DNA of 64,000 bases from Escherichia coli. GTDB lineage: Bacteria > Pseudomonadota > Gammaproteobacteria > Enterobacterales > Enterobacteriaceae. The notes under the pieces are model-generated. The model was not told the DNA's origin and searched no databases. It saw only the letters and a program-made list of their open reading frames with translations. The DNA is taken from the NCBI RefSeq assembly GCF_003334785.1, contig NZ_QOWV01000007.1; one strand, given 5' to 3'. A program made the position numbers and the translations under genes. The number at the start of each line of letters is the position of its first letter. Within the stretch, counting starts at the first letter, position 1. Positions 18,349 through 62,604 of the stretch are shown one piece after another.

Positions 18349-18485
<137 letters not shown>

Positions 18486-50715: not shown

Positions 50716-53106
50716 ATGGCAATTAACAATACAGGCTCGCGACGATTACTCGTCACGCTAACAGCCCTTTTTGCAGCGCTTTGCGGGCTGTATCTACTCA
50801 TTGGCGGAGGCTGGCTGGTCGCGATTGGCGGCTCCTGGTACTACCCTATCGCTGGCCTTGTGATGCTCGGCGTCGCCTGGATGCTGTGGCGCAGTAAACG
50901 CGCCGCGCTTTGGCTATACGCAGCCCTGCTGCTCGGCACCATGATTTGGGGCGTCTGGGAAGTTGGTTTCGACTTCTGGGCGCTGACTCCGCGCAGCGAC
51001 ATTCTGGTCTTCTTCGGCATCTGGCTGATCCTGCCGTTTGTCTGGCGTCGCCTGGTCATTCCTGCCAGCGGCGCAGTTGCCGCACTGGTGGTCGCACTGC
51101 TGATTAGCGGTGGTATCCTGACCTGGGCCGGATTTAACGATCCGCAGGAGATCAACGGCACCTTAAGCGCCGATGCCACACCTGCTGAAGCTATCTCCCC
51201 CGTAGCCGATCAGGACTGGCCTGCCTATGGTCGTAATCAGGAAGGTCAACGCTTTTCGCCGCTGAAACAAATTAACGCCGATAACGTCCATAATCTGAAA
51301 GAAGCCTGGGTGTTCCGTACTGGCGATGTGAAGCAGCCGAACGATCCGGGTGAAATCACCAATGAAGTGACGCCGATTAAAGTGGGCGACACCCTTTACC
51401 TGTGTACCGCTCACCAGCGCCTGTTTGCGCTTGATGCCGCCAGCGGCAAAGAGAAATGGCATTACGATCCTGAGCTGAAAACCAACGAGTCTTTCCAGCA
51501 CGTAACCTGCCGTGGTGTCTCTTATCATGAAGCCAAAGCAGAAACCGCTTCGCCGGAAGTGATGGCGGATTGCCCGCGTCGTATCATTCTTCCGGTCAAT
51601 GATGGTCGACTGATTGCGATTAACGCTGAAAACGGCAAACTGTGCGAAACCTTCGCCAATAAAGGCGTGCTCAATCTGCAAAGCAATATGCCAGACACCA
51701 AACCGGGTCTGTATGAACCGACTTCGCCACCGATTATCACCGATAAAACCATCGTGATGGCCGGTTCAGTTACCGATAACTTCTCAACCCGCGAAACGTC
51801 TGGCGTGATCCGTGGTTTTGATGTCAACACCGGGGAGCTGCTGTGGGCTTTTGATCCCGGCGCGAAAGATCCGAACGCAATCCCGTCTGACGAACACACC
51901 TTTACCTTTAACTCGCCAAACTCCTGGGCACCAGCGGCCTATGACGCGAAGCTGGATCTGGTCTATCTGCCGATGGGCGTGACCACGCCGGATATCTGGG
52001 GCGGTAACCGCACACCGGAACAGGAACGTTATGCCAGCTCGATTCTGGCGCTGAATGCCACTACCGGGAAACTGGCGTGGAGCTACCAGACCGTTCACCA
52101 CGACCTGTGGGACATGGATCTTCCGGCACAGCCGACGCTGGCGGACATCACCGTTAATGGTCAGAAAGTGCCAGTTATTTACGCTCCGGCGAAAACCGGC
52201 AACATTTTTGTGCTCGATCGTCGTAATGGCGAACTGGTGGTTCCGGCACCGGAAAAACCGGTTCCCCAAGGTGCAGCGAAAGGCGATTACGTAACCCCAA
52301 CTCAACCGTTTTCTGAACTGAGCTTCCGTCCGACGAAAGATTTGAGCGGTGCGGATATGTGGGGAGCCACCATGTTTGACCAACTGGTGTGCCGCGTGAT
52401 GTTCCACCAGATGCGCTATGAAGGCATTTTCACCCCGCCATCTGAACAGGGTACGCTGGTCTTCCCGGGTAACCTGGGGATGTTCGAATGGGGCGGGATT
52501 TCCGTTGATCCAAATCGTGAAGTGGCGATTGCCAACCCAATGGCACTGCCGTTTGTTTCGAAACTGATCCCGCGTGGTCCTGGCAACCCGATGGAGCAGC
52601 CGAAAGATGCCAAAGGCACGGGTACGGAATCCGGCATTCAGCCACAGTACGGTGTACCGTATGGTGTCACGCTCAACCCGTTCCTCTCACCATTTGGTCT
52701 GCCATGTAAACAGCCAGCATGGGGTTATATCTCGGCGCTGGATCTGAAAACTAATGAAGTGGTGTGGAAGAAACGTATTGGTACGCCGCAGGACAGTATG
52801 CCGTTCCCGATGCCGGTTCCGGTGCCGTTCAATATGGGTATGCCGATGCTGGGCGGGCCAATCTCCACGGCGGGTAACGTGCTGTTTATCGCCGCTACGG
52901 CAGATAACTACCTGCGCGCTTACAACATGAGCAACGGTGAAAAACTGTGGCAGGGTCGTTTACCAGCGGGTGGTCAGGCTACGCCAATGACCTATGAAGT
53001 GAATGGTAAGCAGTATGTGGTGATCTCCGCAGGCGGTCACGGTTCATTTGGTACGAAGATGGGCGACTATATTGTGGCTTATGCGCTGCCGGATGATGTG
53101 AAGTAA
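50716..53106 (+). CDS. gcd: Membrane-bound PQQ-dependent glucose dehydrogenase
   Basis: The known 796-aa protein starts at MAINNTGSRRLLV; N-terminal transmembrane helices plus a PQQ beta-propeller. Confidence 0.96.
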   Translation: MAINNTGSRRLLVTLTALFAALCGLYLLIGGGWLVAIGGSWYYPIAGLVMLGVAWMLWRSKRAALWLYAALLLGTMIWGVWEVGFDFWALTPRSDILVFFGIWLILPFVWRRLVIPASGAVAALVVALLISGGILTWAGFNDPQEINGTLSADATPAEAISPVADQDWPAYGRNQEGQRFSPLKQINADNVHNLKEAWVFRTGDVKQPNDPGEITNEVTPIKVGDTLYLCTAHQRLFALDAASGKEKWHYDPELKTNESFQHVTCRGVSYHEAKAETASPEVMADCPRRIILPVNDGRLIAINAENGKLCETFANKGVLNLQSNMPDTKPGLYEPTSPPIITDKTIVMAGSVTDNFSTRETSGVIRGFDVNTGELLWAFDPGAKDPNAIPSDEHTFTFNSPNSWAPAAYDAKLDLVYLPMGVTTPDIWGGNRTPEQERYASSILALNATTGKLAWSYQTVHHDLWDMDLPAQPTLADITVNGQKVPVIYAPAKTGNIFVLDRRNGELVVPAPEKPVPQGAAKGDYVTPTQPFSELSFRPTKDLSGADMWGATMFDQLVCRVMFHQMRYEGIFTPPSEQGTLVFPGNLGMFEWGGISVDPNREVAIANPMALPFVSKLIPRGPGNPMEQPKDAKGTGTESGIQPQYGVPYGVTLNPFLSPFGLPCKQPAWGYISALDLKTNEVVWKKRIGTPQDSMPFPMPVPVPFNMGMPMLGGPISTAGNVLFIAATADNYLRAYNMSNGEKLWQGRLPAGGQATPMTYEVNGKQYVVISAGGHGSFGTKMGDYIVAYALPDDVK

Positions 53107-53144
53107 GACTTGCTCAGATTGCTGACAACGTGCGCGTTGTTCAT

Positions 53145-53244
53145 GCCGGATGCGGCGTGAACGCCTTATCCAGCCTACAAAATTGTGCAAAATCAATGGA
53201 TTGCACAGCTAGCGTAGGCCTGATAAGCGTAGCGCATCAGGCAG
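53145..53244. repeat. REP elements downstream of gcd
   Basis: gccggatgcggcgtgaacgccttatccagcctac and inverted gtaggcctgataagcgtagcgcatcaggc flanking a short palindromic spacer. Confidence 0.85.
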
Positions 53245-53267
53245 ATTTGCGTTTGTCATCAGTTTAA

Positions 53268-53289
53268 TGCCCGGAGAGATCCGGGCATA
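53268..53289. terminator. Hairpin between gcd and cueO 3' ends (putative terminator)
   Basis: Inverted repeat atgcccgga-gaga-tccgggcat; weak T-tract. Confidence 0.4.
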
Positions 53290-53307
53290 TTTCCGAATAC
53301 GGTCTTT

Positions 53308-54858
53308 TTATACCGTAAACCCTAACATCATCCCCGTATCTTCATGCTCCAGCAGATGGCAGTGCGCCATATAAGCATGTTCTTTCGGTGCATCGTGATT
53401 AAACTTCACCAGCACTTCGCTGACATTACCTTCTACCTTAACGGTATCTTTCCAGCCCGCGCGATGAGCCGCTGGCGGTTTGCCATTTTCTGACAAGATA
53501 CGGAACTGCGTGCCGTGGATATGGAACGGATGCAGCATCATGTCGCCCACGCCAGAGATAACCCAACGTTCGTATTGCCCTTTCGCCGCCGCAAACATCG
53601 GCTTGTTCATATCAAACGCCTGACCGTTGATTTTGTTGGCATGGTGGAAATCGAACTTCCCGCCGTGGTTCATATGATTCATATTGCCGTGCCCCATATG
53701 GCCCATCATCTGGCTGTGATCCATCCCGGCCATCGCCTGATCGCCATATTTCTCCATTAGCATCTGCATCCCCATCATATCGAGCATCGGGTCCATAGAG
53801 AGTTGCAGCTTGCGTACCGTCAGCCCTTCCAGCGAAGGTAACGCAGGCAGGCTACTTAATGTGTCTGGCAAAGCACCGGAGGCACTAATAGCAATCGGCT
53901 GAATCCGCATTACCGGATGAGGCTTATCAAACGGCGCAATCGCCATCCCCATCTGGCTGACCGGCAGCGTCACCAGGTCAAAGGGTTTGTTATCGTTAAC
54001 CTCCACCAGCACTTCAAAACGCTCGCCCATCAGCACCGGCAGTTCGCTCACCTTCACTGGTTCAGGTAGCAGACCACCGTCGCTGGCAATCACATACAGC
54101 GGGCGATTGTCGCTGGTGGCGAAATTGAGCGAACGGGCATTACAGCCATTGAGCAAACGCAGGCGCAGCCAACCACGCGGGGCAGCGTGTTGCGGGTAGA
54201 TTGCACCGTTGGTCAGCAACGTATCGCCAAACCAGCCCACGGCGGCGGTCATCACATCCAGTTGATAATCAATCTGCCCGTCGGCGCTAAATTTCTTATC
54301 CTGAACGATCACCGGAACATCATCGATACCCCACTGTTTTGGCAGCATTAATTTCAGGATCTCGTCATCTTCAATCACCACCAGCCCAGCCAGCCCCATC
54401 GCCACCTGTCGCCCGGTTTTGCCGTGCTGATGCGGATGGAACCAGCAGGTAGCGGCAGGTTGATCAACGTTCAACGTCACCGAGCGCTTGCCACCTGGCG
54501 GAATAATTCCCTGCGGGCCGCCGTCGACTTCACCCGGTACTTCCAGCCCGTGCCAGTGCAACGTTGTCTCTTCCGTCAGTTGGTTGTAGATATCAACCGT
54601 TACCGCTTTGCCGCGCTGTAATTTCACCGCCGGCCCCAGCAGATTGCCGTTATAGCCCCAGGTAGTTGCAGTTTTCCCGCCAAAGGTGGACTGGCCTGCG
54701 CCAATAGTTAACTGAATGCGATTACGGGCATCGGTCGTGAGCAAATCAGGGATCGGTAACGTTGGGCGTTCTGCCGCAAATACTGCGCGGCTCCACAGCG
54801 GCAAAGCCGAAGCCACACCCAGCGCGACGGAATATTTTAAGAAATCACGACGTTGCAT
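53308..54858 (-). CDS. cueO: Multicopper oxidase CueO (periplasmic cuprous oxidase)
   Basis: The known 516-aa protein starts at [28 protein letters not shown] (twin-arginine signal); His-rich copper sites ([19 protein letters not shown]) and a Met-rich segment. Confidence 0.96.
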
Positions 54859-62534: not shown

Positions 62535-62544
62535 ATTGCAGACG

Positions 62545-62576
62545 TAAAAAAAGCGGCGTGGTTAGCCGCTTTTTTA
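62545..62576. terminator. Bidirectional Rho-independent terminator between convergent yacH and lpdA
   Basis: A-run, stem agcggc-gtggtt-agccgct, then T-run (aaaaaaagcggcgtggttagccgcttttttaa); readable as a terminator on both strands. Confidence 0.8.
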
Positions 62577-62604
62577 ATTGCCGGATGTTCCGGCAAACGA
62601 AAAA

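Follow-up and report, generated by a model that had tools for sequence, protein, structure and literature searches.

BIME-1 repeats of Escherichia coli are also known as RIB (reiterative ihf BIME) or RIP (repetitive IHF-binding palindromic element). Their description is said to go back to Gilson, Bachellier and Hofnung, to Boccard and Prentki in 1993 and to Oppenheim in 1993, and the names of their A and B flanks were reportedly given by Gilson et al. in 1991. According to the literature, a BIME-1 is made of one Y and one Z1 unit in single copy, joined by a long and well-conserved L linker in which an IHF site is frequent, with a length of 140 bp, and presence or absence of the whole element has been reported for BIME-1 loci other than the one considered here. 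The units of REP325/naRNA, which belong to BIME-2, have been described as Y plus Z2. A 2026 preprint gave REPs two roles, termination that depends partly on Rho and stabilisation of mRNA, and found that about 60% of REPs lie between convergent genes and that about 30% of convergent pairs in E. coli hold one. REPINs, REP doublets mobilised by the RAYT/TnpA-REP Y1 transposases, resemble BIME-1 in having two inverted REPs that are able to pair in one long hairpin and in carrying conserved GTAG and CTAC tetranucleotides, which TnpA-REP requires in vitro for binding and cleavage; BIME-1 differs from them by its long protein-binding linker, by A and B flanks that look like terminal inverted repeats, and by long target duplications at many copies.

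The present analysis concerns the gap between the convergent genes gcd and cueO in a 64,000-nucleotide stretch of DNA, referred to as the window. This DNA is of the E. coli K-12 type, and a 1201-bp query around the feature matched MG1655 (E. coli K-12) at 100%, as it did many further E. coli chromosomes. The window runs opposite to the numbering of MG1655, the two being converted by MG coordinate = 191941 - window coordinate, and the MG1655 minus strand is the gcd sense. As had been proposed in a first-pass annotation, the two annotated genes do converge on the gap, which measures 201 bp between the stops of gcd (plus strand) and cueO (minus strand). The features of the locus, in window coordinates, are as follows.

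50716-53106, plus strand: coding sequence of gcd, quinoprotein glucose dehydrogenase, present in the list of open reading frames and a 100% match to annotated gcd (MG1655 138835-141225); its TAA stop ends at 53106.
53107-53113, plus strand: junction GACTTGC, 7 nt from the gcd stop to the repeat, outside the repeat family; genomes without the BIME have CCAT(A) instead.
53114-53143, plus strand: A flank, TCAGATTGCTGACAACGTGCGCGTTGTTCA, defined by profile alignment and by an alignment of 62 copies; an imperfect inverted repeat of the B flank.
53144-53178, plus strand: Y-type REP (palindromic unit), TGCCGGATGCGGCGTGAACGCCTTATCCAGCCTAC, recognised by the Y half of Rfam naRNA4 (34.8 bits) and by the family consensus.
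53179-53213, plus strand: L linker, 35 nt, with a conserved core and a small central palindrome.
53191-53203, plus strand: match to the IHF consensus, AATCAATGGATTG, which fits WATCAANNNNTTR exactly (MG1655 138738-138750).
53214-53243, minus strand: Z1-type REP, short and inverted relative to the Y REP, GTAGGCCTGATAAGCGTAGCGCATCAGGCA (minus-strand reading TGCCTGATGCGCTACGCTTATCAGGCCTAC).
53244-53266, plus strand: B flank, GATTTGCGTTTGTCATCAGTTTA, defined by the family profile and the 62-copy alignment; lost with the rest of the element in alleles lacking the BIME.
53267-53288, no strand assigned: locus-specific stem-loop ATGCCCGGA-GAGA-TCCGGGCAT, with 9 of 9 base pairs between arms 53267-53275 and 53280-53288.
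53289-53307, plus strand: spacer ATTTCCGAATACGGTCTTT, 19 nt from the hairpin to the cueO stop codon, with a weak gcd-sense T-tract (3 T in the first 8 nt).
53308-54858, minus strand: coding sequence of cueO, multicopper oxidase, with its stop codon at 53308-53310 and a translation 100% identical to annotated CueO.

Positions 53114-53266 very probably constitute one canonical BIME-1 repeat of the RIB/RIP class, about 153 bp long, in which an A flank, a Y-type REP, the 35-nt L linker, a short Z1-type REP and a B flank follow one another. The two REPs are inverted, and their CTAC and GTAG tetranucleotides face the linker; the Y REP carries a single G>A change that gives CCAGCC in place of CCGGCC. 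Within the linker, TTGTGCAA (53183-53190) and TTGCACAG (53201-53208) contain the two complementary 7-nt arms of the palindrome, TGTGCAA (53184-53190) and TTGCACA (53201-53207), which pair both in the RNA fold and in the Rfam ES036 alignment, and the inverted-repeat arms of the A and B flanks are TGCTGACAA and TTGTCATCA, respectively. The first-pass annotation had seen the two inverted REPs, the short palindromic spacer between them and the separate hairpin, all of which are present at 53144-53178 and 53214-53243, 53179-53213, and 53267-53288, respectively. It had started the repeat at 53145, which does not hold, as the unit begins 30 nt further left at 53114 and also takes in 53244-53266; it had also missed the L motif with its IHF consensus, the A and B flanks, and the separate histories of the repeat and the hairpin. 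Its suggestion of BIME typing was apt, and the outcome is BIME-1 by profile, by the Y plus Z1 pair and by the L linker.

The identity and boundaries of this BIME-1 are shown here by comparison with the family. One genome per species was scanned with a pattern built from the REP end and the linker core, which yielded 127 copies in 107 DNA stretches, nearly all from Escherichia species and Pseudocitrobacter, with the linker core TGCAAA.TCAAT..ATTGC common to the 127 copies. A profile HMM built from 116 copies of other genomes matched 53112-53264 over model positions 5-157 of 159 (153 bits, E = 1.2e-46), and, given the extent of this match, the likeness to the family reaches past the REPs into the left and right flanks. 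The Y, L and Z1 parts can also be aligned, column for column, to 61 copies at other loci. RNA of a 216-nt stretch comprising the gap folds far more stably than its shuffled versions (z = -4.9 for the plus strand and -5.4 for the minus strand), and a query containing the REP had dozens of matches per E. coli genome among the matches listed. The folding z-scores, the profile E-value and the many genomic matches argue that the element is not a product of chance. In a consensus fold of the 62 copies almost no covariation was found (term -0.13), the sequences being too conserved, which leaves this test neutral on any RNA or single-stranded DNA fold; no pairing between A and B was predicted in that fold, and a long Y:Z1 hairpin was neither supported nor opposed.

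The type of the repeat follows from its Z unit and its linker. Since the long Z form is Z2, both in the description of REP325 and in the Rfam naRNA4 consensus, which shows the long form GCCTGATGCGACGCTTGCGCGTCTTATCAGGCC, the short form beside the L linker is Z1. The gcd-cueO element has the 30-nt short Z form and a 35-nt linker of L sequence, and shares with BIME-2 the Y REP, the extragenic 3' location and a proposed role as stabiliser and partly Rho-dependent attenuator; the long Z2, the short linker without an IHF site, the usual tandem repeats and the status of preferred gyrase target, which mark BIME-2, are absent from it. That second pattern, a short linker with a long Z2, was observed in the other REP cluster of the window, between fhuB and hemL at 18351-18468. 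With BIME-1 the gcd-cueO element has in common the inverted Y and Z1 on either side of a long conserved L linker that holds an IHF consensus, conserved A and B flanks, a length of about 150 bp, an extragenic position at the 3' ends of transcription units (here between convergent stop codons), a single unit in K-12-type genomes, and presence or absence of the whole element among strains. Nothing essential separates it from the family: besides the G>A change in the Y stem, its linker has an extended 7-bp palindrome unlike other BIME-1, and its IHF core AAATCAAT is closer to the textbook consensus than the family consensus AATTCAAT is. It is thus an already known kind of element, BIME-1/RIB/RIP having been described since the early 1990s. 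It is presumably labelled as a 'RIP' element in GenBank U00096. The RefSeq annotation of MG1655 has coding sequences only at this locus and no repeat feature.

Two small open reading frames run across the repeat (53130-53267, plus strand, 45 aa; 53044-53196, minus strand, 50 aa) and were dismissed as spurious, since their sequence is that of the repeat, which 44% of strains do not have. A small-RNA gene was likewise considered and rejected. A gene of the ES036/CssrF or naRNA type has in its favour an Rfam ES036 (CssrF) hit of 30.9 bits on the L linker and the naRNA4 (CssrE) hit of 34.8 bits on the Y REP, but both fall below the gathering scores of these repeat-derived families (37.6 and 59.5, respectively) and reflect shared repeat sequence rather than a gene. 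As no promoter-like site was detected by a promoter scan of 52900-53500 and no 3' ends are listed by Term-seq for the interval, such a small RNA is highly improbable.

The distribution of the element was followed in 5426 complete E. coli genomes. The allele bearing the BIME, counted where at least 80% of a 501-bp query was covered, occurs in 2741 of them, and a short allele, in which the gcd stop (TAA) is followed by CCATA and then by the hairpin, in 2377 (about 44%); the remaining forms amount to about 300 genomes. Among these other forms, those examined include one that keeps only the A flank after a deletion between two ATGCC microhomologies, some with a duplicated A flank plus Y unit, and IS insertions. 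The BIME-1 at gcd-cueO is therefore dispensable, with about 44% of E. coli genomes lacking it. The 66-nt hairpin segment that extends up to cueO was found in 5420 of the same 5426 genomes, in a single copy per genome, so that the repeat, missing in 2377, and the hairpin have different histories.

Outside E. coli, E. albertii carries the BIME at the same place, with gcd largely deleted and one endpoint of the deletion in the A flank. In Escherichia sp. MOD1-EC7003 the left junction is again GACTTGC, with eight tandem Y-L-Z1 units, and Shigella flexneri has the short allele. The insertion is either old or was moved by recombination, and an old insertion is favoured because E. albertii and cryptic-clade Escherichia share it. 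The junctions of the two main alleles differ, CCAT(A) in the short one versus GACTTGC in the long one, and neither is a clean derivative of the other.

The hairpin lies outside the repeat and is a native, locus-specific 3' structure common to gcd and cueO. Its perfect 9-bp stem contains 6 G-C pairs, with a folding energy of -16.4 kcal/mol in the gcd sense and -15.5 kcal/mol in the cueO sense; it was invariant in the five E. coli alleles compared and identical in E. albertii. It stands 19 nt from the cueO stop and, in strains without the BIME, 5 nt from the gcd stop. It was not found in the more distant relatives searched, namely Citrobacter, in which other genes lie downstream of cueO, and one metagenomic relative, in which cueO and gcd are separated by a REP pair of a kind of its own. 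Like a bidirectional intrinsic terminator, it is one GC-rich stem-loop common to two converging genes, but it has no flanking A-tract and T-tract, in contrast to the terminator between lpdA and yacH (window 62547-62576), which has the form AAAAAA-stem-TTTTTTT.

Whether this gap forms the transcript ends of the two genes is the next question, the first-pass annotation having described it as a composite structured 3' region. Under that explanation the REP pair and the hairpin together would work as one composite intrinsic terminator in both directions and give the mRNAs of gcd and of cueO their 3' ends. The position exactly between two convergent stop codons and the very stable structures would suit such a terminator, many family copies adjoin true terminators with a hairpin and T-tract, and the 2026 preprint places 78 REPs within 306 bidirectional terminators from an earlier study. 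However, neither strand shows the canonical signature of an intrinsic terminator. The hairpin supplies the GC-rich stem-loop, but no U-rich tract follows it: the 8 nt past it contain 3 T in the gcd sense (ATTTCCGA) and 2 T in the cueO sense (TAAACTGA). A U-tract is equally absent after the REPs on either strand, and a terminator scan requiring at least 5 T in 8 picked out neither the hairpin nor the REPs as terminator-like, whichever strand was read. Two terminator-like matches were observed at 53465-53485, inside cueO, at chance level.

Public data on transcript ends lean the same way. The curated Term-seq of Adams et al. 2021, covering three growth conditions, has no 3' end at MG1655 1386xx-1387xx, an absence that may simply reflect the low expression of gcd and cueO in those conditions, and the TERMITe tables have no entry for the gcd-cueO locus. 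Adams et al. 2021 reported instead a region of Rho termination at 138442 (minus strand, antisense to cueO), with a Rho score of 3.44 and p = 5e-6; this position falls past the gap, about 190 nt into cueO, its site being only loosely placed by the 800-nt windows used. Reads upstream and downstream of 138442 were 57 and 18 in untreated cells and 220 and 239 with bicyclomycin, low counts taken over those windows. Read-through in the gcd sense thus increases with bicyclomycin. Because downstream coverage equals upstream coverage when Rho is inhibited, the structured gap alone probably does not stop RNA polymerase, and little intrinsic stopping is seen. Together with the absence of the REP part from 44% of E. 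coli genomes, these observations make a composite intrinsic terminator quite unlikely, and neither the REP part nor the hairpin looks like an efficient intrinsic terminator. The claim that transcripts end within the interval leans towards refuted, with the low expression of gcd and cueO to be borne in mind. Termination of gcd-sense transcription may instead depend on Rho, which we hold to be about as likely as not; the counts are low and both genes are poorly expressed in the media used (LB and M63 glucose).

The explanation that we prefer is that the BIME-1 would be transcribed within the gcd 3' UTR and within read-through from cueO, where its REP stem-loops would chiefly block 3'-to-5' exonucleases and would also attenuate transcription modestly, in part through Rho. 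Such a picture agrees with the way REPs are now seen, as elements of 3' UTRs that shield the mRNA upstream of them from exonucleases and attenuate partly by way of Rho. In DNA, the L linker may bind IHF and be bent by it, and final termination in the gcd sense would be brought about by Rho further downstream, inside antisense cueO. These functional steps (transcription in the UTRs, the exonuclease barrier, attenuation, IHF and Rho) draw on work on the family and on one public data set, and our confidence in them is evenly divided.

A role at the level of DNA has also been considered, in which the element would be kept mainly as a site, bent by IHF and weakly bound by gyrase, that acts as a supercoiling insulator between the converging transcription units. 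The perfect IHF consensus in the L linker is in keeping with it, and the family literature reports binding of IHF, gyrase and Pol I as well as topological insulation. The IHF motif alone is not significant, with 4 matches in the 64-kb window against 2.4 expected, and its weight comes from its place in the L motif, where the literature reports frequent IHF sites. Against this role, 2377 of 5426 genomes have this gene pair but lack the element, which is hence not required here; moreover, gyrase cleavage is enriched in BIME-2, and the paper concerned reports nothing for BIME-1. Taken as the main explanation, a DNA-level role appears unlikely, although it is compatible with the RNA-level role preferred above.

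The hairpin beside the repeat may have more to say about how BIME-1 spreads. At many BIME-1 copies the stem-loop to the right of the B flank was observed to be repeated just left of the A flank, over roughly 15-30 bp. With one copy counted per locus, and at least 12 matching bases and at least 80% identity required, a direct repeat immediately adjacent to the element at each end was found at 25 of 65 loci, compared with 1 of 641 mismatched left/right pairs, and its median length was 23 nt. A stem-loop abuts the A end in 58 of 73 copies and lies near the B end in 44 of 73, often with T-tracts on the outer sides.

Comparisons of occupied and empty sites confirmed at two loci that the flanking repeat is a duplication of the target. 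The lpdA-yacH site (window 62535-62604) is empty in K-12 and consists of one bidirectional terminator, AAAAAA-GCGGCTAACCACGCCGC-TTTTTTT, whereas 494 genomes have a BIME-1 at this site, with one copy of the stem-loop on each side of it; ccmH-narP has the same occupied-versus-empty pattern. The duplication pattern itself is thus well supported. At gcd-cueO a left copy of the hairpin was sought and none was found, the flank being GACTTGC, so that the duplication rule is not visible at this locus. Only the right-hand stem-loop is present, in gcd-sense orientation and exactly at the position of the family's right-hand copy, the place by the B end that a stem-loop occupies in 44 of the 73 copies, and it is the likely integration target of the BIME-1.

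It is possible that BIME-1 integrates at terminator stem-loops and duplicates the whole stem-loop, with the gcd-cueO hairpin as the surviving copy of one such target rather than a feature in its own right, but we regard it as rather doubtful that this proposal is both new and mechanistically right. Under this proposal, BIME-1 would insert in the manner of a MITE, the left copy of the stem-loop keeping the side with the A-tract and the right copy the side with the T-tract, such that both converging transcripts might read through the repeat and still terminate. Integration would be directed by structure, through staggered cuts at the two feet of the hairpin or cruciform, perhaps made by a REP-associated Y1 transposase, and the flanking direct repeats would then allow precise excision and hence the presence/absence polymorphism.

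The comparison with MITEs is instructive in both directions. BIME-1 shares with them a size of about 150 bp, the absence of coding capacity, terminal inverted repeats that are imperfect (the A and B flanks), folding as one long hairpin, direct repeats on either side of many copies, and presence/absence polymorphism. It differs in that its duplications span 15-30 bp and comprise a whole terminator stem-loop, those of MITEs being as a rule far shorter. To our knowledge, no related transposase-bearing IS exists for BIME-1. In one review the example given of a MITE duplication is 5 bp, and REPs are stated to 'do not display MITE signatures'.

Taken by itself, the gcd-cueO element matters very little, as it is of a known kind and lies in an unremarkable place, REPs between convergent genes being common. 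The locus nevertheless offers a clean natural experiment, with about half of the strains having a 153-bp repeat in the gcd 3' UTR and 44% lacking it. Beyond this locus, the duplications of terminator hairpins around BIME-1 copies provide a testable footprint for the old question of how REPs and BIMEs spread.

A direct duplication of an entire terminator stem-loop was found to flank many BIME-1 copies among the homologous DNA stretches from other genomes (loci L007-L113; examples are L068, L060, L076, L042, L023, and L013). When each locus was counted as one copy, direct repeats abutting BIME-1 were detected at 25 of 65 loci, compared with 1 of 641 controls consisting of mismatched left and right flank pairs, and these abutting repeats had a median length of 23 nt. 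Across the BIME-1 family survey, an A-tract often preceded the left copy of the stem-loop, with a T-tract after the right copy.

Sites discussed in the text, by window position
62535-62604, gap between lpdA and yacH (also represented by L122, L046, and L123)
53217, position corresponding to the IS621 insertion point in E. coli CEA224S
53279, position corresponding to the IS3-family insertion point in E. coli MS 119-7
18351-18468, second REP cluster, between fhuB and hemL

Comparison of occupied and empty sites in the lpdA-yacH gap demonstrates that the target is duplicated. In K-12, this gap contains only one bidirectional terminator, AAAAAA-GCGGCTAACCACGCCGC-TTTTTTT. Of the 5426 E. coli genomes, 494 have a BIME-1 inserted in the gap, and these occupied sites carry the stem-loop of that terminator on each side of the insert. 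An identical occupied/empty pattern was observed between ccmH and narP (L124, L052, and L125).

The gcd-cueO gap itself has several variants in other Escherichia genomes. In Escherichia sp. MOD1-EC7003 (L095:2624-3600), eight tandem Y-L-Z1 units with a period of 107 bp occupy the same insertion site as the gcd-cueO BIME-1, and the hairpin has one unpaired change (ATGCCCGCA...). BIME-1-type units in tandem arrays were also present in L094, L097, L098, and L104; the arrays of these four loci and of L095 disagree with the description of BIME-1 as a single-copy element. In E. albertii (L120:2352-2857), the hairpin and BIME-1 are likewise found after cueO, only a gcd remnant is left, with hpt next to it, and the A flank of BIME-1 holds one endpoint of the gcd deletion. 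In E. coli clone D i14 (L003, aligned to window 53107-53266), the A flank is the sole part of BIME-1 that has been kept, the Y-L-Z1-B portion having been lost in a deletion between ATGCC microhomologies that lie where the Y REP and the hairpin begin.

In addition, insertion sequences have entered this gap. REPs are a known target of IS621, an IS110-family element, which in E. coli CEA224S (L006:2768-5233) lies directly after the GTAG of the Z1 REP; an IS3-family element adjoins it, and the Z1 REP and the B flank are missing in part. In E. coli MS 119-7 (L126:1-401), an IS3-family element interrupts the gcd-cueO hairpin at its loop, and only ATCCGGGCAT of the hairpin remains beside cueO.

With regard to taxonomic spread, Pseudocitrobacter, like Escherichia, is rich in BIME-1 units that are nearly identical, A and B flanks included (L018-L024, L033-L044, and L105-L113). 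A scan of one genome per species gave no match to the exact BIME-1 pattern in Salmonella, Citrobacter, or Klebsiella. E. coli-type BIME-1 was also found on tiny contigs of assemblies labelled Desulfosporosinus, Collinsella (a metagenome-assembled genome), Alkalicoccobacillus, and Methylobacterium (L017, L065, L066, and L067), most likely reflecting contamination of those assemblies.

Further REP clusters were observed as well. In the fhuB-hemL cluster, a 15-nt linker separates a Y REP from a long Z2 REP, and part of a third REP is also present, which is the BIME-2 pattern; the cluster scored 46.6 bits against Rfam naRNA4, under the threshold of 59.5. In a metagenomic relative whose CueO is 87% identical, the cueO-gcd gap (L118:2752-2913) contains two tandem doublets of a different REP type (GCCGGATAAGGCGCAGCCGCCATCCGGC). 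The convergent cueO-gcd gap has been colonised by REPs independently.
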